Assembly: GCA_000004985.1 (NCBI GenBank)
Contig: GG738928.1
Length of the DNA stretch: 64,000 bases
From: Naegleria gruberi
Lineage: Eukaryota
Strand: one strand, 5' to 3'
Both the position numbers and the translations under genes were made by a program. This document shows, piece by piece, positions 4,970-31,824 of the stretch. The notes under the pieces are model-generated. The model saw only the letters and a program-made list of their open reading frames with translations. It did not search any database and was not told the DNA's origin. How positions within the stretch are numbered: the stretch's first letter is position 1; every line of letters begins with the position of its first letter.

Positions 4970-7828
4970 TCAATCTTCATTAATTCCAAATTGAAAGTCT
5001 TTTGAGGAACTATCTTTTGGTAGTGTGTCGAANNNNNNNNNNNNNNNNNNNNNNNNNNNNNNNNNNNNNNNNNNNNNNNNNNTTGAATATCTGAATAGGT
5101 TTGATAAAAATGTAGTATCACATGGACAACCACTGAGATTCAACTCATCCAGTGTCTGGAAGTACATGTACATAATATTAGAAAAAATTTTAGGAAATTC
5201 AATATTTGAAAGATCCAATGTTTTCAAACATGCAAATTCCTGTAAAAATGTTCTAAACGAATCACTGTAAATTGGATTGATATCTGTACTCATATCACCT
5301 GTTATATTGTTCAATTTGACATTCTCAATGGAAGGGGAATAACTCAATGAATGAGCAATTGAAAAAAGAGCAGGTGGTGACTTGTTTCCAGTGAATTTGA
5401 ATGTCTTCAGATTCTTCTTAGCTAGTAAGCTATCTCCAATTCTTTGTGTCCCTCTTTCTCCAATATCACAATGAGAAAGATCTAAATAGGTTAGATTAGG
5501 GCAGTTTTTCAATTTTTTCAAAAAATCGGCAAGATATGAGACACCGTTATCCCCAATCTTGTTGTTGCTAAAGTCTAATATTTTCAATGATGGAAAGTTA
5601 ATATAGAATGAAGAGAGATCTGATCCTGTAATCTTTGAATCATGAAATATCAAGCTCTCTATTAATGCTCTTCTAGAATAATCACTCTTAATAGAATAAA
5701 AGAATGTCTCAAAGTCTGCTCCTTTATCCTTTTCCTGATACTCGATATTCCAATGTTTGAGAATTATTGTACTAATTGGAAGGGATGATAATATTTTCGT
5801 CAAAACATCTTGGCAACCATTGAACCAACAAGTCTCCAAACATTTGCATTTAGAATATCTGCTAATCATTCCAGAAAGGAGAATGAAATTATTTCTTTCA
5901 GCCATTTCACGAAGAGTTCTGCTCATCGACTTTTGTAAATATAATTGCATCCATGCGTCTTTCATCTCCTTTAAATAGTAAGGAAGTTTTGAAATTCTCC
6001 ATTTTGAATTGCAAGCAATTTTCCATTCTTGTTCTGATGTAAGTTTTGGCAAATCTTCTAGAACTATGTGTTTTCTAAAATTTGTTGGAGGTTTTCCATG
6101 GTAGCCTTTTTGTAAACTACTCTGAATGCAGGATTTGAGTAGTTCAATAACACTATCATGAGTTTCAAATACATGGAGAGATGACATTTCATTCAGTAAC
6201 TTGAAGAAGGTTTTAAAGTCATTCATCTTTTCAATTTGGTTCAATTTTTCTATGAACGAATCTATGGATTGATAAGGCAATATTCCACAATTTTCATTCA
6301 TAAATTTAGAAATACTTTCAATAGAGTTAAAATCGGAAAAGATCTGGATAAAGTAAATGTGTAATGTGAGTTCTTTCAACCTCTTTCTGATACTTTTGAA
6401 AGAATAGGACACTCTGTCGTCATCAGTTACTTCAGCACATTGAAAATCTGCAATTTCCTTGTAGCTCTTCAAAATATTCTTAACATATCTTGTCAAGAAT
6501 TCTCTAACATAGATATCATACAAATCTTTCCAATCAAATTTTGAAAATGGAATTAGCATTACAAAGTTTAACAAATCTCCAACTTTTTCTTTTGATCTTT
6601 CTTCACTTCTAATAAAGGAATCAATAGAGCTATTAATCAATTCACTAATCTCTGGAATTTCCTTAATCGCCTCGATCATCAATCTGAAAAATCTCAAGCA
6701 AGCCATAAATGCATTGGTGGTCTTTTCTCTCTGATCAACCATTTGAAGCAAACAATTAGACATCAATCGAGGAAGAATTTCAATAACTTGTTCTGGTGAA
6801 AAATCTATCTTTTTCGAATGGGAACTGGACAAATTAGCTAATGAAGATTTGGTAACGTGAAGAACCTTCTTGATATGAATTTCATCATTTGTTTCTGTAA
6901 GGATTGGTATCCAGTGTGTAAATGAAGTTTTCTCTCTTGACATTCCTCTCACATTATAATTCATGAACGCTCTCAATGAAAGAATATCCAGAGAGCAATA
7001 TATAGAACATATTTCCAATGATTTTGCGTTTCTCTTTTTACAGTTAATTCCATAGCCAACAAGATCACTTGTTTTGGTAAAGAAGCAAACTGAATCTGAG
7101 TTGGCTAACACTTTCTCAACTTTACAATTCATTCTTTTGAAACCATCATCTTCCTCTCTAGATACAAATGGAGGAGAAGGTAAATGATTAGAATGGCCAA
7201 CTTTTCTATTAACATATGCTTTGGCATGTGACATTGACCATTCCTGAGCTGACAAGTATTCTTCCTTTTTTTCCTCAAAAGTCTTTGGATCCTGAATATT
7301 TGACAATACTCTAGTCACATCTGCTCCATCATATAAAAACGTTTGCAACTGCATCAAGATTGAATGAACAGAATAAATTGGTTTCCACTCCTCAAGAAAA
7401 TCCAAACAAATCCTATCAGAATCGACCACATTAGGATGTTCCATCCTCGTACACAATCGAATAGTGGGCGCCTCCATTGGATAATTCTCACTAAACTTGA
7501 TCACTGCATGAAAAACCACACCATCATACATGGTATCTGAATTTCCTCGAATATTTACGTGCCACATCATGAAATCCCTCTCATCATCCACCTGAAAATT
7601 CATCTCCCGATAAATATTCATTATTTTCAAATTATCGAGAGCCTTCTTCTTCTTGATCGGAGCTGGACATGCACTCACATGACTCAGTGGATTTTCTTGA
7701 ATGTATTTAAATTCGGAATATAATCTTTTCAAGGCTAAAATTGGAGAAGTTTTACAATGTTTGTAACTATTCGGATCTGAATTTGCTTTCGAACGTGCAT
7801 TGGGCTTGATCTTTTGGTGTTGAGACAT
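4970..7828 (-). CDS. Ubiquitin-conjugating enzyme (UBC/E2) domain fused to a C-terminal RNI-type leucine-rich-repeat domain
   Basis: 952-aa single exon. N-terminal UBC fold with HPNVVDSDRICLDFLEEWKP (HPN motif, catalytic Cys) and SILMQLQTFL. C-terminal LRRs (LKILDFSNNKIGDNGVSYLADFLKKLKNCPNLTYLDLSHCDIGERG…). A 50-N gap (5033-5082) lies 16 codons from the stop, so the C-terminus is incomplete. Confidence 0.7.
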   Translation of the reverse strand: MSQHQKIKPNARSKANSDPNSYKHCKTSPILALKRLYSEFKYIQENPLSHVSACPAPIKKKKALDNLKIMNIYREMNFQVDDERDFMMWHVNIRGNSDTMYDGVVFHAVIKFSENYPMEAPTIRLCTRMEHPNVVDSDRICLDFLEEWKPIYSVHSILMQLQTFLYDGADVTRVLSNIQDPKTFEEKKEEYLSAQEWSMSHAKAYVNRKVGHSNHLPSPPFVSREEDDGFKRMNCKVEKVLANSDSVCFFTKTSDLVGYGINCKKRNAKSLEICSIYCSLDILSLRAFMNYNVRGMSREKTSFTHWIPILTETNDEIHIKKVLHVTKSSLANLSSSHSKKIDFSPEQVIEILPRLMSNCLLQMVDQREKTTNAFMACLRFFRLMIEAIKEIPEISELINSSIDSFIRSEERSKEKVGDLLNFVMLIPFSKFDWKDLYDIYVREFLTRYVKNILKSYKEIADFQCAEVTDDDRVSYSFKSIRKRLKELTLHIYFIQIFSDFNSIESISKFMNENCGILPYQSIDSFIEKLNQIEKMNDFKTFFKLLNEMSSLHVFETHDSVIELLKSCIQSSLQKGYHGKPPTNFRKHIVLEDLPKLTSEQEWKIACNSKWRISKLPYYLKEMKDAWMQLYLQKSMSRTLREMAERNNFILLSGMISRYSKCKCLETCWFNGCQDVLTKILSSLPISTIILKHWNIEYQEKDKGADFETFFYSIKSDYSRRALIESLIFHDSKITGSDLSSFYINFPSLKILDFSNNKIGDNGVSYLADFLKKLKNCPNLTYLDLSHCDIGERGTQRIGDSLLAKKNLKTFKFTGNKSPPALFSIAHSLSYSPSIENVKLNNITGDMSTDINPIYSDSFRTFLQEFACLKTLDLSNIEFPKIFSNIMYMYFQTLDELNLSGCPCDTTFLSNLFRYSXXXXXXXXXXXXXXXXXFDTLPKDSSSKDFQFGINED
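5033..5082. other. Assembly gap (50 N)
   Basis: Run of n. Confidence 0.99.
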
Positions 7829-9349: not shown

Positions 9350-12300
9350 TTAAATCAATTTCGAATCATTCAACAAATTTTCTCTGGTTTTACCAGAATT
9401 TTCATAAAAAACAAACTCATCTGTTGTAGTAAATCTGGAAAAGGTATCATTCAAGTTGATAATAATCTGATCTTGTAGTGAGCTGATTGATTGTTGCAAT
9501 TTTTCATGGAATGCTTCTGGTATTTCCTTTTCATTCTTTGATTTCATTTCTTGATTGTTCTTGGCAGAGTTGACCAATTCACTAAGTGATTTTCTCATTT
9601 GTTTGAATTCGTTTCTAGTTTCGGATGGAATGTTAACTTCCTTAATGGAGCCACTTTCAATATAATTGGTAAATAATTCTTCAATCAATGAATTCACAGA
9701 GTCAATTCTGTCATTTGCTTTGATTAACTCTTGGAGTTGTTTCAGTTCCAAATATAAATGCAAGTTTTCTAATGAATATTCCTTTTTACAGAATGATTCG
9801 AATAGTTTCAGACCTTCTCTATTCGATAGTAATTGTTCCAATTCATCCTTTTCTTCATTACTCGATTGGTTTCTAAAATTCTTTTGTTTGATGAAATGAA
9901 CTAATCTCACAATAAGTGCAAATCCTCCAAATACCAACAAGTAACTAAACAAGTACAATATTTCAAATAGCAATGAAATTGAATCGTTCACTCTTGAATT
10001 TACATCACCTCTCTTGTAACTCAAACCTGACAATCCAATAATTTGTGAAATTACCAAAAATGTAAAGCAAACAATAAATAAAATCATTTCCACTCTAAAG
10101 TATAATGGAGTATCGAGTTGAATGAACCAATCATAAGCTCTCTTGATTGGAACTTTTGCCATTTTCTTGGCAGTTTCCTTATCAAACTTTTGTAAAGCTT
10201 CCTTGTTAAACGAAAGTGAACTATTTGATAAATTACTTGTTGATTTTTCATTACTATCCACAAGCATTTCAGATTCATTTCTAGAATTCAAAAGTGACAT
10301 GATCACATCTAACAAAATCAATGCACATATAAGAAATCCCAATGATAAAATCATAATTGTAAACGAAATTGAAACAATGTAAGAATATTCGATTCCTGTA
10401 ATGACACTCGTTCTCACAAGAATTACCCACAACGTCCAATACATTAGGTTCACGGTCATAAAGATTCCCATGATGGAAATCATTGCTCTTGTGGAGAGGA
10501 AAATTCTAATCACTCTCAAAATTTTGTCTCCCTTTTGGTACAATTGACTAGTTCTATCATTTTGGTTCAATGAGAATTTAATGGATAATCTATGATAGAA
10601 ATATTTGAGAATGTGAAATCTTGATGTCTGATACAAGTATGAAAACATTGCTGTCAAAGTCAAAGTGTTTACAATAATTGTAATAACATTCGAAACAATA
10701 TTCGATGCCAAATTACCATTTTCCAATTGAATCACCGTCGACTCTGTCAATCCCTCACTCTTCAATGATAATATCAACCCATTTCTAGTAGTATCCAACA
10801 AAATACTCCTCTGAACTATCAGAAATAGTCCACTTTCCACCACCAATGCAAACATTCCAATAAACGGAGTTACAAATCGACTCGCCAATGGTTGAGATTT
10901 TCGCATCACAATCAAGGCAACGAGAATTGAACTCGACAAGATGAAAAATAAAACACCAAATGAAATTTGTGCAATGTACAATTCGGATAATTGTTCGGCA
11001 GCCCTTAATGAATCAGTTGCGGTGTTATTAAGGGAGTTTTCGATAAAGGCAGCGAAGAGTGTGGTGTGCGTACATTTACAAATTAAATCTCCGTTTGATT
11101 GTAAAGTGGAAAGCGAGCAGCCGCTGGAATCCCATTGTAAAGTTGTTTCATTCCAGAATTTACAAGTGATTTGAGATGAATTGAGAGAATTGATTGTTTG
11201 ATTCAATATTGTAAAGTTAATTGAAATTGGTTGAGTCAATTCTGAAAGTGGTAATGTTTTACCTCCTAAATAAAGAGTGAAATCTTTAGAGTTGGTCAAT
11301 TGAGTTTGATTTGAAGTAAATAGAGGATTAGTATAGGTTATGAGTGATAATCCAACTTCCTTATTGTAGCCATCGTATTTTGTTAGAATGTAATCCGAAT
11401 CTAAACTAATGTCGGAGAATTTTTCTAATTTAGTGCTGTTAGAATTCTTAATAAATGTTGAAACTGTTACATTAATCAAATCTGATGAATAAACTGTGGA
11501 AATAATAGATTCGGATAATAATTTGACCGATTGCTGCAATAATAGAACAGATGTCAATTGAGTACAAGTATTCGAAACATTTGAGAAACCAAAAGAAAGT
11601 AAATTACTTGCACTTGTCAAGGTTGTTTGTAAATCAGAATCTGAAATTCTTTGCTTTGTAACGTAGCCAAGAGTTTCCTTTTCTTTTTTGTAAATTTCAT
11701 TAACTTGATTCAAATAATTTCCTAATTTGTCATTAATTGCTGTAGCAACCTCATTGGAAGAAGCTGATAAAGTAATTTGTTTCAGATTTTCCAAAGCAGT
11801 GGACGGATTGGAAATGTCAATTGTCATCTTATTGACAGACTCTACAAGTACTGAACTAGTTACTTCCTTTCTCAATTTTAAACTTGTATCATATGGAAAT
11901 ACAGTTGCAATACTACCCATTCTTGCTTTCAAAACTTCTGAAGAATCGTCCAAATTTGCACTAATCGAAACTGAACTAATCGATTGAGAATATTCAGTCC
12001 CCAACGCATCCAAACAAATTACAAACAATTCCAAACTTTGACTTGTAGCCAAACTTGTTTCATTCAAATAGGGAAGATACACAGAATCTCTTCCACTTGT
12101 CAAAAATTCTGAAATTCTAATCATTGAATTCTTAAATTTAAATCCAAAAGCAAATTTGAGAGGAGAAAGAAACAATCGACTCGCATTCGAATCTGTAAAA
12201 TTCCAAGCACCTACAACTTCCTCAATAATAAAACTTGTTTTCAGTGCAACACCTGACAATGGTTGAATATTAACAATTGCCATTGGATTTCGAATTGGTG

Positions 12301-13742
12301 GTGCGACGAGAATTACTTGTTGTGAAATGGCGATGATTTGATCCTTAATTGGCTTAATAAGGAGTGTGAAGGTGAGATTTCCAGAGGATTGGATGGTTGG
12401 TTGGATTTTGATGGAAATGATGGGATTGAAGGTCAATGTGAATAAGTTGGCGTTGTTTTTTGGTTTCGTCAAGATTCCAATAACATTTTCATCTGCTGAA
12501 ATAACTTCAGAACCAAACATGAATGAATATTTCAATGAAATGGTACAATTTGCAGTAGCACACTCATCCCTTGTTAATTTCAAATCTGAACTAGTTCTCA
12601 ATTCAACGCTCACAATATTGAAATCAACATTGTTTTTCACACCATTCACAAGTACTTGTGGAATTCCAATAGCATTCAGTGATCTTTCCACTAAAAGTGA
12701 ACAATCTATACCTAAATATCCTCCAGTACAAGTACAAAAGTCAGGTTGTAGACAATTGCCATTTCCAGAACAAACATTCGGTGAATTAGCCGAAACTCCA
12801 AAACAAATTGGAATGAAACAATTAGGTCCAGTATATCCAGGTGAACAAGTACAATTATTTGAAGAAGCACAAATACCATTTCCTGAACAAACTCTATTAT
12901 CATTTGCAGCAATTCCAAAACAACCAATCGAGCCACAATTATTTCCATAAAAACCTGGTTGACATTGACACTTGTTCATTTCAATGCATTCACCCCTTCC
13001 TGAGCAAACACTGCTACTGTTAGTACTCTCAATTCCAAAACACCAATTTGTAACACACATTGTTTTGAACTCATTCAAATAATAACCACTTTCACATGAT
13101 GGAGTTAGTGATCTAATTCTCTTTTTCAAAAATTCTGAAATATAAATTACACCACTTGTCTCATTAAATACTAAACCTCTTGCATCACTCACTGAACTAT
13201 CCAGAGCATCAGTGTTTTCATATGAAGTTGTGCTATTTCCAGCAATCATTGTAAGAGTTCCATTCTTGTCAATTCTGAAAATTCTTCCCTTATATGTTTC
13301 TGTTACAAAGACAGTTTCGTCCTTGGTAACGAATAAAGCACCACCTCCAATTGGGGAACCAGTGAATGCTAGTGTTGAAATATATCCAGTTTCGTTTATC
13401 ACTCTAACACCTTTCGTATCTGATAGGAAAATCTTTCCATTCCTAACAAAAATATCAAAAGGAGACTGAAGAATAGCACTAGTAGCTAGAACACCCTCTC
13501 CAGAATACGAAGAATCCAAATCACTTCCTGCTATTAATGAAATTATTCCATTCTTGACTAATCTAACTCTCGACTTGTCTATCAGGTAAAATTCATTCTC
13601 TGAAATTGCAAAGATTGAATTTGGACCTTTCAGAGCACTAAAAGCAGATCCATTTTCAGTGAAGGAAGACAAGGAGAAATCAGAATAGTTTCCAGCAACT
13701 GTGGAGACGAAACTATTCGGCCAATCACGAAGAGAAAGTTTT
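9350..13742 (-). CDS. Adhesion-GPCR-like 7TM-RGS protein, exon 2 of 2
   Basis: Acceptor TTGTCAG at 13743-13749 gives an 89-nt intron (13743-13831) and an in-frame join (…FYVDR|KLSLRDWPNSF…). The track ORF 9350..13672 starts at a TTG. Domain order: NHL-type repeats; about 4 EGF-like Cys modules (CSGRGECIEMNKCQCQPGFYGNNC…); long S/T-rich stalk; GPS-like motif CKFWNETTLQWDSSGCS…LICKCTHTTLFAAF; seven hydrophobic helices; C-terminal RGS domain (FESFCKKEYSLENLHLYLELKQLQEL…EELFTNYIESGSIKEVNIP). Confidence 0.75.
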
Positions 13743-13831
13743 CTGACAATTCTATGTATTCTAATGATTAAAGATAATGATGAAATTGTTATATTGTGAT
13801 ATTGTGTGAAAATGTCATGTTATTAGCTTAC

Positions 13832-14187
13832 CTGTCAACGTAAAAGAGGGTGTCATTGAAAATACTCGAGTCAGCCACAGTTGACATACAAATAGTGTTC
13901 TGATTACCATCAGGAGTGTATATTGAAGTGTTGTTTCCAATCTTGTTAGGAGAAAAACTTTCACTTTCCAATGAAAAGATTCGAATAGTACGGTTTAAAC
14001 CATCAGAAACGATTAGTTCGTTGTTGTATAAGGAAATTCCATACATTCCAATATCTGGTGTAGAAATTGGACCAATAGTCTTGATAATGTATTTAACACT
14101 AGCTTGTTTTTGTTCTTGTCCATCAACAGCCACAAACAGTAACAACACAATTGACAACAACAACCATGTATGACAGTTGACTTTCAT
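13832..14187 (-). CDS. Adhesion-GPCR-like 7TM-RGS protein, exon 1 of 2 (signal peptide + first NHL-like repeat)
   Basis: ATG at 14187, signal peptide MKVNCHTWLLLSIVLLLFVAVDG. Exon ends AG|GTAAGC (phase 2). Confidence 0.65.
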
Positions 14188-15035: not shown

Positions 15036-15108
15036 TGCCGACACCAGGGATCGAACCAGGGACCTTAAGATCTTCAGTCTTACGCTCTCCCAACTGAGCT
15101 ATGTCGGC
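15036..15108 (-). tRNA. tRNA-Phe (GAA)
   Basis: Minus strand reads GCCGACATAGCTCAGTTGGGAGAGCGTAAGACTGAAGATCTTAAGGTCCCTGGTTCGATCCCTGGTGTCGGCA, a canonical cloverleaf. Anticodon loop CTGAAGA (GAA), discriminator A, then a T-run terminator (AATTTT). Confidence 0.95.
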
Positions 15109-15359: not shown

Positions 15360-16463
15360 CTATTGCAAAGAACAATTCTGTTTTTTTGAGGCAAAACTAG
15401 TGTGAAATCTGAAAGCCATGGCAGATCTGTAAACTTCATCAAAGACTGATTTGAGCCCCTCTTGTGTTAAGCTTGAACAGTAACCTATTTTTACGAGATG
15501 TGGAAAGCTATGAAGTTTTCTTTCCAGAGTATGTTGTCCTACTAGTGAAAAGGTATCCAAATCCTTTCCTGTTATTATAATATGAATTGGAATAAGGGGA
15601 AAAGTCATGGCAAGTTTTCTCAAATTCTGAAGAATACGTTTCTCAAATAATTGTTCATCATTCACAAAATTATTCAGTTCTGTACATTTACAAGTAAAAG
15701 CCACAACATTGAAAGGTTGCTTGATAACTTCTTGAACAATCTTCTCATTTGATAGAGACATGCACTGCATTGTGCACATTATCATACATCCATCAATCAT
15801 AATATTTGCTTCAAACAATGACTCCTTTTCCATCATACCCTCTTCTGCGAAGAAATTAGTACAATAAGTACAGAGTAAACTTGATTTTCCACTTTTAGGA
15901 AGCCCTACAATTCCAATATTCAGCCGTAAAGGTGTTGATATTGAACTACCCGCTCGTCCCAAGACAACATAAGGTGATTTACCATCATATTTTGGTAGAG
16001 AACTTTCTAATAATTCTCTTTCAAAATTAATCATTTCTCTAAAGATGTGAAATATTGTCTTGACAGAGTTTAATCTCAGCCCTAACAATTCTAATTGGTA
16101 AATGATAAAAGTCTTGTTCTCTTCCAAACTATTCTCTTTCAATTCTTCAAATTTCGGTAAATTCCTATATAATTGCAATAACTTTCTGTATTGATTTACA
16201 TCTACAATCCAATTAGACTTTGATCCTTCCTCTAAAATCATTCCTTCAATACAATTTACTACTCTCCTATAAATTTCCATTCTGCTCTTCATCAATTCCA
16301 TTCCGAAACGATTTAAAATTTCATCAACTTGTTCTTCATCTCTCAGAGAAACTGAGAGAAAATAAAGTAAATAATACCGATCAGCATAGCCCAGAAATTT
16401 AATGATCTCATTGAAACAATCATGTTGCTCTGAATACAACTGAGCAAGGAGGCAACTCGACAT
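15360..16463 (-). CDS. P-loop GTPase-like protein (Ras-superfamily-like G domain, N-terminal helical region)
   Basis: 367-aa single exon with ATG at 16463. Walker A GLPKSGKSSLL, candidate G4 ITGKDLD. Subfamily not assignable by eye. Confidence 0.5.
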   Translation of the reverse strand: MSSCLLAQLYSEQHDCFNEIIKFLGYADRYYLLYFLSVSLRDEEQVDEILNRFGMELMKSRMEIYRRVVNCIEGMILEEGSKSNWIVDVNQYRKLLQLYRNLPKFEELKENSLEENKTFIIYQLELLGLRLNSVKTIFHIFREMINFERELLESSLPKYDGKSPYVVLGRAGSSISTPLRLNIGIVGLPKSGKSSLLCTYCTNFFAEEGMMEKESLFEANIMIDGCMIMCTMQCMSLSNEKIVQEVIKQPFNVVAFTCKCTELNNFVNDEQLFEKRILQNLRKLAMTFPLIPIHIIITGKDLDTFSLVGQHTLERKLHSFPHLVKIGYCSSLTQEGLKSVFDEVYRSAMAFRFHTSFASKKQNCSLQ

Positions 16464-22414: not shown

Positions 22415-23893
22415 TTATATAGCCTCAATTAAATGATAATTCTTCTTTCCTAATCTCAATACAGCAATTGATCCATTACCTGCCACAAGATCAGCTTCTG
22501 TCATGACATATTTTGGATCTATTTGTCTCTTGTAATTAATGTAAAAACCTCCACTCTTGATCAATTTACCCAATTCAGATTTGGATGGTCCAAGCTTGAG
22601 AGCTAAAGCAATATCTATAATTGGCTTAGATAAAAGATCTTCCTTTGGTACTTGTCCACCAACAGAATCCTTCATTAGTGATGTAATATCTTTCTTTGAT
22701 AAGGTCTTTAAAATTTCAATTGCTTCCTCACTGCTAGCTCCAAATAATAAATTTGTACATTTTTGTACCTTTTCCAATTGTTCCTTTCCGTGAATTTGTG
22801 TTGTTAATTCTTCAGCAAGTCTTTGTTGAGCAATTCTCTTTTCTGGTTGCTGATTGTGTTCTTGTAAGATTTGGTCAATATCTTCCAAGCTAACAAATGT
22901 TAACATTTTCAATAATTTCTCCACATCAGCATCTTGAACTCTGAGGAAATATTGATAAAAATCAAAGACAGAAGTCATTTCAGGATTGAGCCAGACAGCA
23001 TTACCCATAGATTTACCAAATTTAACTCCATCAGCAGTTGTGAGTAAAGGAATTGTCATACCACTGCATACTGATTGACAACTTTCTGGCATGGCTGTTT
23101 GCTTTTTCTTTATGAATTCCAATCCACTTGTAATATTTCCCCATTGATCAGATCCTCCAATTTGAAGTCTTACGTTATTTGAGTTCAATAAATGGAAAAA
23201 ATCATAACTTTGGAAAAGTGAGTAGGAAAATTCAGTAAAAGTCATACCACCATTATCAGCATCAGCATTTTCAACTCTAGATTTAACACTGTCCAATCTT
23301 AACATGTTAGCAATTTGGAAATATTTTCCAACATTTCTCAATAAATCAATCATTTTCATTTCTCCCAACCAATCAGCATTATTGACAACTGTGACATTGT
23401 TCTTAGAGGAGAAGAAAGAATTCATTTCTCTCTTCAATCCTTCAATATTATTATTAATTGTTGATTCATCCAAGAGAGGTCTCTCTGTTTTTCTGCCACT
23501 TGGATCACCAATTCTACCAGTTGCACCACCAACAAGACAATAAATATGAACATTCTTTGGATTAAAAGCCAATTGGAATCTCTTCAAAGTTTGAAGAACA
23601 AGCAAATTGCCAACATGAAGCCCCGAAGCTGTAGGATCAAAACCAGCATAAATACCAATAGACTTGGCCAATTCACTACCACTGTTCATTTCTTGCATTA
23701 AATTATCAAATCCCGAAGTAGCATCATTATAAATTCCTCTCTTTTTTAAATCGGAAATAAATTCATTATTATTTGATGATGAAGTTTGATTAAATCTCCT
23801 TTGAATATTGTTTCCTCCGATTAAATACTTTCTGTTCTTTAAAAAAAGGCCCGAGTCAACAAGGCTTGTTTGACGAAGAAGGCTTCGTTGCAT
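22415..23893 (-). CDS. Tyrosyl-tRNA synthetase, mitochondrial (bacterial-type class I TyrRS)
   Basis: N-terminal presequence-like MQRSLLRQTSLV. HIGH-type motif GLHVGNL, KMSKS-type KFGKS, C-terminal S4-like domain. 492-aa single exon. Confidence 0.85.
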   Translation of the reverse strand: MQRSLLRQTSLVDSGLFLKNRKYLIGGNNIQRRFNQTSSSNNNEFISDLKKRGIYNDATSGFDNLMQEMNSGSELAKSIGIYAGFDPTASGLHVGNLLVLQTLKRFQLAFNPKNVHIYCLVGGATGRIGDPSGRKTERPLLDESTINNNIEGLKREMNSFFSSKNNVTVVNNADWLGEMKMIDLLRNVGKYFQIANMLRLDSVKSRVENADADNGGMTFTEFSYSLFQSYDFFHLLNSNNVRLQIGGSDQWGNITSGLEFIKKKQTAMPESCQSVCSGMTIPLLTTADGVKFGKSMGNAVWLNPEMTSVFDFYQYFLRVQDADVEKLLKMLTFVSLEDIDQILQEHNQQPEKRIAQQRLAEELTTQIHGKEQLEKVQKCTNLLFGASSEEAIEILKTLSKKDITSLMKDSVGGQVPKEDLLSKPIIDIALALKLGPSKSELGKLIKSGGFYINYKRQIDPKYVMTEADLVAGNGSIAVLRLGKKNYHLIEAI

Positions 23894-29732: not shown

Positions 29733-31778
29733 ATGCCTTTAAATGCATCGAATGTATCCAACAGAAGTAAGGATGATGTGATCATCGAGGATGGGTATAC
29801 AGCATCTTCATCGTTATCGTCATCCTCATTATCGTTATTAAGGGCAGGTGATAGTAAAAGCTGCAGTAGCTGTTCAATAGAAGCAGCAACTCCATGGAAA
29901 CAAGATACATCCTCATCATCAACATCAGATGACTTCATAATTCCTATTCGGAATGGTAGGAGCAACTCTCGCCAATTCATAAAAACACCATCCTTTTCAT
30001 CCCTTTCAACAATAATAGATTCTTCACTTCCATCAACGCCTAAATCATTGCCTTCATCACCATCATCATTACAAAATCATCAAGAAGGAACAGAACCACC
30101 TCTTACTGATACTCTCCTAGTTAAATCGATGAGCGAATGTAAGAATGACATGGAGAGGGGCATGTTGAACATGTTGGCTGATAAGAAGAATCTTCAGAGA
30201 TTGGTCGGAATTCTCTTCATCTTTGCCACTCTACAAAGTGTTCAACAAATGACACTCTATGAAAATTTATTGAATATTGCCTTTTTCCTTGTTCAGTGCC
30301 TTAATAATTATTTAAGACAAACTAATAATGATACAGCTCTCACCTATGAGGAATCATTCAAACATTTGGATAAAAGAGAAATTATAAGAACTGTTTTTTC
30401 AATGGTCATGTACACTTTGAGAATGATGTATCTTCCCAAACACAAGATGATTTTCCTTCCAGTGCTTTTTATTTGGTTTGCAGGAGCTAACAAACTATAT
30501 ATCTACTCTACATTTTGGGGATTACTACCCACTTACTATGCTTCAGTGATGTATATATCGTTGGCTTGCTATTTTGGATTTTATGAATTGTTAGAGAATG
30601 GGTACACTGAGACATTTCTAAATTTAATGATGGATTACTTTATTTTGGTGGCTGTGGTGTGGATGTGGACATATTATCTGGTTAATGTAACTGGATTCTT
30701 GAAACACAAAGTGGACAAACTGAAGGAAACAAGGAAACGTTTGGAAAGTGCTTTGGAAGCACGAAGTAGATTCATTGCACATGTGAGTCATGAATTCCGT
30801 TGTCCAATCATGTCCAGCATTGGGTGTTTAGAATTGTTGAAAGAAACTCCTCTGAATGAGAAACAAAATGATCTCGTAGATACAATAGTTTCATCGAATA
30901 GTGTCATTCTTCTATTGATTGAAGACATTTTACAAATTGTTAAAATTGAACATGAAAGTAAGGGTGCAAAGAAGGAAGATACAAATATTCAACCTTTCAA
31001 TATTTTCGAATCATTGAAATCGCTGAAAGGAATAATTTCTGGTTATGCTTCGAATTTTAAGGTTAAGCTTAATTTGGAAATTGATGAAGGAATTAAGAAC
31101 TTGACAGTTTTATCAAATCCTTCAAAGATCCATCAAATACTTTCTAATTTGCTGACGAATGCAGTGAAAGCATCAAAGAAAGATGATGATGTTTGGCTTA
31201 AATGCAATATTTTGGAAAAGAAAGATGATGAAACTGTAAAGATTAGATTTACTTGTCAAGATTTTGGATGTGGAATTCCTCCTAATTTGTTGGAATCTAT
31301 ATTTGAACCCTTTGTACAATTGCAAAATAATTCACAATCAAAAGTACCTAGCTCTGGGCTAGGATTGACTACAGTATCTCATTTAATCAAGACATTGAAT
31401 GGAACTATTAACGTTGAATCACAGGTTGGAATAGGAAGCTCATTTACAGTTGACTTGGCTTTTAAAATTGTTCCAAACGAGGTAAAATATAAAGTTCAAG
31501 AAAATGTTGTTGTAGAAGAAAAGAGATCGAAACTACACTTGAACGTTCACAAGAATTACTTGAACCTGATGTCACATTTAGAAGAAGGTGAAAAGGAAAT
31601 GGAAGAAACTCCAAAATTCAATTCCAATGTTTTGATAGCTGAAGATAATCCAATCAATAGAAAAGTTATTGTAAAGATGATTAATAGTATGGGAAGTGAA
31701 ACTGATTTTGTTTGTGATGGAAAGGAATTGGTTGAAAAGTTTAATCCAAGCACTCACAAAGTTGTATTTACTGATATG
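29733..31778 (+). CDS. Hybrid histidine kinase, exon 1 of 2 (S/T-rich N-terminus, multi-TM sensor region, HisKA, HATPase_c, first half of receiver)
   Basis: H-box FIAHVSHEFRCPIMS. N-box LLTNAVKAS, G1 DFGCGI, G2 SGLGLT. Receiver start VLIAEDNPINRKV…VVFTDM. At least 5 hydrophobic helices lie between residues 200 and 330. Donor ATG|GTAGGT. Confidence 0.85.
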
Positions 31779-31824
31779 GTAGGTAGCTCAAATTTCGTTT
31801 TTTAAGGTCTAATAACAATAATAG

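Follow-up and report, generated by a model that had tools for sequence, protein, structure and literature searches.

The question raised by this locus is whether one gene of Naegleria gruberi joins the ectodomain of a G-protein-coupled receptor (GPCR) of the adhesion type, including its GPS autoproteolysis motif, to a seven-transmembrane (7TM) domain and a C-terminal RGS box, as had been proposed in a preliminary description made from the DNA letters, and which activity such a protein would have. The window, i.e. the whole 64,000-nucleotide stretch analysed (contig GG738928.1, assembly GCA_000004985.1), holds one copy of this gene, NAEGRDRAFT_75738, in two exons on the minus strand (14187..9350). 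The gene is already annotated and this kind of protein is already published, the spliced product of 1588 residues being identical letter for letter to XP_002669365.1 (EFC36621.1, UniProt D2W2W7, "predicted protein"; contig of 160,583 bp) in an exact-sequence look-up. The protein is probably a receptor-type GTPase-activating protein (GAP) for Naegleria G-alpha subunits, regulated by ligand or by force and part of the heterolobosean 7TM RGS family. The features bearing most directly on this reading were located in the window as follows, AF2 standing for AlphaFold2.

9365..9841, minus strand: RGS box, residues 1426-1584, with an insert of about 45 residues ahead of the last helices.
9884..10981, minus strand: 7TM domain, residues 1046-1411, intracellular loops 2 and 3 being long (hydropathy and AF2).
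11060..11068, minus strand: H1017-T1018-T1019 triad, placed by AF2 in the turn that joins the final two strands.
11051..11167, minus strand: GPS motif, residues 984-1022 (Pfam GPS, PF01825, 35.4 bits against a cut-off of 22.5).
11036..11503, minus strand: GAIN subdomain B, a predicted 14-strand beta-sandwich, residues 872-1027 (AF2, model residues 388-543).
11519..11941, minus strand: GAIN subdomain A, a predicted helical bundle, residues 726-866 (about seven AF2 helices, model residues 242-382).
11960..12664, minus strand: two predicted beta-sandwich domains, residues 485-719 (AF2 strands, model residues 4-235).

The RGS box proposed at the C-terminus was confirmed both by Pfam (RGS, PF00615, 40.3 bits against a cut-off of 23.9, residues 1426-1519) and by a complete predicted RGS fold. 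Comparison with the PDB using phmmer retrieved RGS3, RGS16, RGS10, RGS2 and RGS4 at E values of 1e-7 to 2e-5. These matches cover the first two thirds of the box and share F-x-x-x-E-[FY]-S-x-E-N-L and K-E-V-N-[IL]; N-L-N-D-T-F-S-R-F comes past the insert. Foldseek placed the RGS model on RGS1, RGS8, RGS16 and RGS4 with target-normalised TM-scores of up to 0.72-0.76 (about 143-160 columns). By sequence and by structure, the nearest matches are catalytic R4-type RGS proteins, axin being far lower. Nine residues, namely E1446, S1448, E1450, N1451, N1495, N1554, D1557, T1558 and R1561, are invariant in an alignment of 14 family members (A4), and among them E1450/N1451 (SLEN), N1495 (EVNIP) and D1557/R1561 (NDTFSRF) line up with the RGS16/RGS3 motifs EEN and EVN[IL]D. 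The E-N pair, the asparagine of EVN and the D..R positions correspond to the G-alpha contacts of the RGS4-G-alpha-i1 complex. Judging from these positions and by analogy with its relatives, the RGS box of this copy would be an active GAP. The linker between TM7 and the RGS box comes to about 3 residues in the AF2 model (helix 359-400, next helix 404-416), suggesting by inference from the model that the GAP module sits against the cytoplasmic face of the helix bundle, in an orientation that is uncertain.

An RGS box could also serve as a non-catalytic binder, like the RGS-homology domains of GRK or axin, in what would then be an adhesion or scaffold protein. The long insert, the alignment of two thirds of the box to the Pfam model and an ectodomain made of adhesion-type modules are all compatible with such a role. 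It is nevertheless quite unlikely, given that the G-alpha contact residues are invariant in 14 diverse family members, that the nearest matches are catalytic R4-type proteins well ahead of axin and that the work on N. fowleri (PMC9283941) found active GAPs in the RGS boxes of relatives.

That work also answers whether the combination of parts had been described before, which the preliminary description had left undecided. According to Bosch et al. 2022 (J Biol Chem 298:102167, PMC9283941), N. fowleri encodes 28 proteins in which seven TM helices are combined with an RGS box at the C-terminus and several of which carry EGF, lectin and GPS elements. The order of parts is the same as in the N. 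gruberi protein: a complex EGF-containing ectodomain, the GPS, the 7TM domain and the C-terminal RGS box. The same paper reports both slow-exchange and self-activating G-alpha subunits in this species, and the RGS boxes of Nf 7TM RGS2-4 as GAPs for Nf G-alpha 2, 3, 5 and 7, self-activating subunits included. 7TM-RGS architectures are moreover present in many bikonts (de Mendoza et al. 2014, PMC3971589). The N. gruberi copy differs from the N. fowleri proteins as a paralogue with at most 43% identity to any other database protein, with an NHL propeller and with just three EGF modules. GPS motifs are spoken of in the accessible part of PMC9283941; a GAIN fold, homology to REJ, an H-T-T triad and the class to which the 7TM domain belongs are not mentioned there. 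The literature searched contained no paper naming XP_002669365.1 or its accessions and none on "7TM-RGS" together with "GAIN domain".

Searching with the 7TM region by phmmer retrieved P0001 (394 bits), P0088 of N. lovaniensis (260 bits) and P0002 of N. fowleri (232 bits), the last matching the window protein at E=0 overall. On its sequence, the window protein is accordingly assigned to the heterolobosean 7TM RGS family, whose named members come from N. gruberi, N. fowleri and N. lovaniensis alone, the others being metagenomic; the amoebozoan proteomes in which orthologues were to be sought are those of the wrong clade, Naegleria being a heterolobosean. Each of the 78 family representatives covering the whole 7TM profile carries an RGS-like tail, which measures 50 residues in P0140 and about 130-270 elsewhere, and a GPS lies just upstream of the 7TM domain in 75 of them, by jackhmmer placement or by motif; two of the three lacking it start at the 7TM domain and look truncated. 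The family motif reads C-x-C-x-H-[T/A]-T-x-F, with the triad H-T-T in 71/78 and H-A-T in 3/78. The presence of GPS/GAIN, 7TM and RGS on one polypeptide is therefore borne out by these counts (78/78 for RGS, 75/78 for GPS) as well as by the single continuous exon that encodes them here.

Exactly seven hydrophobic segments were found by hydropathy within residues 1046-1411, in agreement with the number of helices first counted, and this implies an N-out/C-in topology. The AF2 model shows a 7-helix bundle followed by the RGS fold. The defining adhesion-GPCR feature, a 7TM domain of the 7tm_2 family (PF00002), was tested for and did not appear: neither 7tm_2 nor Dicty_CAR, the two Pfam families that had been suggested, matched the window protein at E<=1, and no Pfam GPCR family matched the 7TM domains of 13 family sequences at E<=10. 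The profile built from these 13 sequences (A1) returned noise alone at E<=10 from all PDB chain sequences. Searches with the C-terminal 592 residues and with the 7TM alignment had given just 3 and 2 proteins respectively, because hydrophobic words saturate the candidate list; the profile was hence run exhaustively with HMMER against 1.84 billion cluster representatives, giving 134 proteins at E<=1e-3, including 89 at E<=1e-30. The 31 weakest of these matches carried an RGS domain in 18 cases and a hydrolase domain in 5, and in none of the 31 a 7tm_2 domain. Short 7TM-RGS proteins without GPS, all of them metagenomic sequences, are also found among the weak matches.

Structural comparison of the 7TM model gave GABA-B2 (18.7) and GABA-B1, GPR156 and mGlu2 (17-18) in class C, PTH2R (16.5) in class B1, FZD4 (16.4) in class F and many receptors (15.2-16.8) in class A, with no adhesion GPCR among the first 60. 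With such narrow margins and so shallow an alignment, the conclusion is limited to a predicted GPCR fold and to nothing narrower.

These results bear directly on the possibility of a true adhesion GPCR (class B2), in which a tethered agonist would activate a G protein and the receptor's own RGS box would then switch it off. The GAIN domain with a full GPS right before TM1, the resemblance of T-L-F-A-A-F-I to the adhesion-GPCR tethered agonist T-x-F-A-V-L-M and the GPCR fold of the predicted bundle all speak for it, and the slow-exchange G-alpha subunits beside self-activating ones in N. fowleri, as given in PMC9283941, leave room for a receptor acting as an exchange factor. Even so it is unlikely, because 7tm_2 is absent at E<=1 for the protein and at E<=10 for the 13 family 7TM domains, because the family profile matches no PDB chain although many adhesion and secretin receptor structures have been solved, and because the 31 weakest of the 134 matches obtained from 1.84 billion representatives lead to RGS or hydrolase domains and never to 7tm_2. 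The adhesion-GPCR hallmark claimed for this protein thus holds for the joining of GAIN/GPS to a 7TM domain and is not supported for the 7TM domain itself, which is without detectable 7tm_2 character. The term "self-deactivating receptor-GAP" presupposes a 7TM domain acting as a G-protein exchange factor, which is supported by nothing here.

Upstream of the membrane, the "long S/T stalk" said to end in the GPS turned out otherwise. The GPS was retained (35.4 bits against 22.5), and the supposed stalk is predicted to be a folded REJ-like region followed by GAIN. Residues 485-1027 were modelled as a pair of beta-sandwiches, then a bundle of helices and a beta-sandwich of 14 strands (AF2, predicted local distance difference test, pLDDT, 77.4; predicted template modelling score, pTM, 0.65). 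In Foldseek against the PDB, the top match of this ectodomain model was the GAIN/HormR structure of BAI3 (4dlo_B, E=8.1e-6), and CD97 (8ikj) and the Gpr126 ectodomain (6v55) matched at E<=2e-4, the other matches being tandem Ig-like sandwiches; global TM-scores were low because the model is multi-domain. GAIN has been defined by a subdomain A of 2-6 helices and a subdomain B of 13-14 strands, with the triad and then the tethered agonist (PMC11697300), and the model fits this layout, its GAIN with GPS lying directly N-terminal to TM1 and its final strand, LFAAFIEN, occupying the tethered-agonist position.

The GPS region reads C-KF-W-NETTLQ-W-DSSG-C-x12-C-K-C-T-H-T-T-L-F, i.e. C-x2-W-x6-W-x4-C-x12-C-x-C-x-H-T-T-x-F, and so retains the consensus residues, namely four cysteines, two tryptophans, one histidine and the threonine. 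The C, W, C, C, H, T and F of the motif are invariant or nearly so in an alignment of residues 485-1045 with 17 relatives (A2, 18 sequences). The match first reported between C-K-C-T-H-T-T-L-F-A-A-F and C-x-C-x-H-L-T-x-F is hence correct for the histidine, threonine and cysteines, and inexact where threonine stands instead of leucine. Distant REJ-GPS relatives without this 7TM domain (P0028, P0012, P0037) have the canonical H-L-T. Cleavage of the GPS, if it takes place in this copy, would be at H-T|T.

Within the same 18 sequences, Pfam found GPS in 18/18 and REJ in 7/18 (best E=4.5e-35), the window copy giving no REJ match at E<=0.01. With jackhmmer, residues ~40-270 of the segment, which comprise the two sandwiches, align to the C-terminal half of REJ in relatives: to P0028 1228-1455 and to the start of the match in P0015 (1366-1857), these alignments of the sandwich stretch falling within the Pfam REJ matches of the two proteins (P0028 1019-1437; P0015 1152-1544). 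As an observation in its own right, P0028 (Logan, 2530 residues, environmental) combines EGF, PKD, REJ (195.9 bits) and a C-x-C-x-H-L-T GPS with a RhoGAP domain at residues 2021-2135 replacing RGS, so that GAIN-linked membrane GAPs for Rho GTPases may also exist.

A juxtamembrane ectodomain homologous to regions matching REJ in 7 of the 18 aligned sequences (down to E=4.5e-35), together with the canonical H-L-T triad of more distant relatives, recalls polycystin-1 and PKDREJ, in which a REJ-type beta-sandwich region is likewise followed by a membrane-adjacent GAIN/GPS and to which the strong Pfam REJ matches of the Naegleria relatives also point. A receptor of this sort, working with a channel partner and not with G proteins, is however very unlikely here: there are seven TM helices and not eleven, no PLAT or PKD_channel match was obtained by Pfam in the window protein, the window copy itself is without a REJ match, and a conserved, G-protein-directed RGS box stands in place of the polycystin-1 tail.

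Known systems other than N. fowleri help in placing the receptor-type GAP that is favoured here. AtRGS1-type proteins of plants and Trichomonas share with it the arrangement of a cytoplasmic RGS box behind seven TM helices, and they are thought to keep a self-activating G-alpha off until a signal removes the GAP (PMC3971589, PMC9283941); unlike the Naegleria protein, AtRGS1 lacks both a large ectodomain and GAIN/GPS. Adhesion GPCRs share the adhesion-type modules, the GAIN domain with its GPS in the last beta-turn and the 7TM domain directly after it, and the ectodomain model found its specific PDB matches in the GAIN structures of BAI3/ADGRB3, CD97/ADGRE5 and GPR126/ADGRG6. Compared with them, the Naegleria protein has H-T|T for H-L|T/S, a C-terminal RGS box, no HRM domain and a 7TM domain that is not detectably 7tm_2. 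GPR158/GPR179 with RGS7-G-beta-5, from the class C orphan receptors, are also counted among the closest known systems.

In the proposed mechanism, the protein would be a type-I-like surface protein with a glycosylated ectodomain in which the NHL propeller is followed by three EGF modules, a REJ-like sandwich pair and, last, GAIN, which would abut a seven-helix bundle of GPCR fold whose TM7 runs, at its cytoplasmic end, nearly straight into the RGS box. At the membrane, this box would bind GTP-bound Naegleria G-alpha, speed up hydrolysis and so keep G-alpha off, a step proposed because of the conserved contact residues and the biochemistry done on N. fowleri relatives. A ligand or a force acting on the ectodomain and GAIN would then alter the conformation of the 7TM domain and TM7, or the localisation of the protein, and thereby change the access of the GAP to G-alpha; the T-L-F-A-A-F-I peptide may become exposed once H-T|T is cleaved, and the candidate peptide for such tethered-peptide gating of the GAP is TLFAAFIENSLNN. 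Regulation through ectodomain, GAIN and 7TM domain by contact, ligand or force is put forward because of the analogy with AtRGS1.

Several points weigh against this reading. Control of the GAP by the ectodomain is inferred by analogy, and the likeness to AtRGS1 on which the mechanistic analogy leans is one of architecture. The triad keeps His(-2) and Thr(+1) and has threonine for leucine at -1, where the canonical form is H-L-T/S. The RGS box has its insert of about 45 residues, and Pfam covers positions 2-83 of the 117 in the model. Both AF2 models were built on shallow alignments (14-18 sequences), with pLDDT values of 73-77.

A bolder version can be put forward tentatively, at well under even chances: the GAIN-7TM unit would be a second, non-holozoan tethered-peptide module, set on a 7TM domain unrelated or very distantly related to class B2, in which GAIN would still be autoproteolytic, because His(-2) and Thr(+1) are conserved family-wide, and in which shedding of the N-terminal fragment would gate a GAP and not a guanine nucleotide exchange factor. 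If true, the logic would be the inverse of that of animal adhesion GPCRs, and the first origin of the GAIN-7TM module, placed in stem holozoans by a 2025 survey (PMC12716839), would have to be revised. Given that placement, the heterolobosean GAIN-7TM junction is either independent or overlooked, and the findings bear on the timing of the first joining of GAIN and 7TM. Beyond the papers searched, the analysis adds a GPS within a complete predicted GAIN fold behind a REJ-like region, the H-T-T triad in the family, a 7TM domain of predicted GPCR fold outside all Pfam GPCR families, and GAIN-7TM-RGS as the rule across about 80 sequence clusters. These points recommend Naegleria as a tractable system in which to ask if a GAP can be under the control of a GAIN/tethered-peptide module.

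The receptor-type GAP presupposes that ectodomain and membrane part belong to one gene, the model of which is as follows.

13832..14187, minus strand: exon 1, with the ATG at 14187 and ending in ...GAC AG; signal peptide and first NHL-like repeats.
13761..13831, minus strand: intron of 71 nucleotides (GTAAGC...ATTAG), with the GT donor at 13831/13830.
9350..13760, minus strand: exon 2, the remaining protein, with the stop codon at 9350..9352.

The open reading frame (ORF) of exon 1 starts with ATG and has 119 codons (13828..14187, minus strand), the unspliced frame meeting a TAA right past the GT donor; the 4.4-kb ORF on the same strand covers 9350..13672 and ends at 9350, its frame being also open upstream. 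The frame of exon 1 can be continued from any of three AG acceptors, so that exon 2 can start at 13760, 13751 or 13742 and the product has 1588, 1585 or 1582 residues respectively. The acceptor chosen is the first AG past an AG-free stretch, the later in-frame AGs lying 9 and 18 nucleotides on (13752/13753 and 13743/13744); the resulting 71-nucleotide intron restores Y-V-D-R-I-H-R-I-V-R-K-L in the second NHL-like repeat, and the reference annotation uses this same first acceptor. The two-exon minus-strand gene coding for the domains listed in the preliminary description is therefore upheld, by the ORFs and by the identity to XP_002669365.1, and its details are corrected: the 89-nucleotide intron, with exon 2 from 13742, loses six residues (IHRIVR) with respect to the reference, and the protein of 1582 residues gives way to the reference product of 1588.

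As a separate observation, the acceptors form a cluster (13743..13762, minus strand) with 9-nucleotide spacing, whose alternative use would gain or lose IHR/IVR in the second NHL-like repeat. Also apart from the argument, the 90% cluster of the 1588-residue RefSeq protein is represented by a 119-residue fragment (P0230, Logan/ENA contigs) of the same length as the exon-1 ORF, and homology searches miss XP_002669365.1 because this fragment stands for its cluster. A "locus without database entry", as the best match of 43% identity in the full-length search might have been read, was ruled out by the exact look-up of XP_002669365.1.

That an adjacent secreted adhesion gene and a 7TM-RGS gene were read as one might be argued from N-terminally short 7TM-RGS database entries (P0089, 523 residues; P0155, 490 residues) and from an intron that is predicted here from sequence. 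Such an artefact is extremely improbable in view of the 4.4-kb frame, which is open without interruption between NHL blade 2 and the RGS stop and within which the first internal in-frame ATG comes 141 codons past the TTG start at 13672 (about residue 290), inside the NHL repeats; a GPS motif would moreover be pointless without a membrane anchor behind it, and the same junction is found in 75 of the 78 relatives.

The N-terminal part of the ectodomain, which is about 1020 residues long in all and has 26 N-glycosylation sequons, comprises three further features.

14119..14187, minus strand: signal peptide, residues 1-23 (MKVNCHTWLLLSIVLLLFVAVDG), with a hydropathy peak of 2.22 at residues 3-21.
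13088..14100 with the intron inside, minus strand: six NHL-like repeats, residues ~30-343, read by eye, with TEN_NHL just below threshold.
12677..13084, minus strand: cysteine-rich linker and three teneurin-type EGF modules, residues 345-480 (Pfam EGF).

The signal peptide was recovered as a signal-like hydropathy segment at residues 1-25, after which no hydrophobic segment occurs until residue 1046. The NHL repeats first reported probably form a six-bladed beta-propeller; six are seen by eye and the closest paralogue, P0001, carries PF01436 and PF25021, and for the window copy the Pfam evidence is borderline (TEN_NHL at 26.5 bits, the cut-off being 27.1). The "about four" EGF-like modules come down to three clear ones, EGF_2 (51.8 bits) and EGF_Teneurin (48.8 bits) each matching three stretches in Pfam.

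A six-frame scan of the window showed no further 7TM, RGS or GPS module, and no G-protein-pathway domain was detected by Pfam on the 10 window ORFs scanned. The gene has as its neighbours ORFs for a UBC-LRR protein, a protein kinase, a tyrosyl-tRNA synthetase and a RasGEF, together with a tRNA-Phe gene. The tRNA-Phe (GAA) gene (15036..15108, minus strand) lies between the start of the receptor gene (14187) and the next ORF (15360..16463). The ORF at 4970..7828 (minus strand, 952 residues) shows an unusual pairing of a UQ_con (ubiquitin-conjugating) domain with leucine-rich repeats, and that at 29733..31805 (plus strand, 690 residues) is N. gruberi XP_002669337.1, named histidine kinase in UniRef. 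Identity to N. gruberi proteins was also obtained for the tyrosyl-tRNA synthetase ORF (22418..23893) and for three other ORFs in the window, and a source in a Naegleria relative such as Willaertia is rejected on account of these identities. A metagenome contig, k127_258943 (ENA ERZ929261, PRJEB11402; L001 1..3495), which also has two IF4E-family genes, encodes a tyrosyl-tRNA synthetase identical to that of the window over 492 residues, implying the presence of N. gruberi-like DNA in the PRJEB11402 sample.

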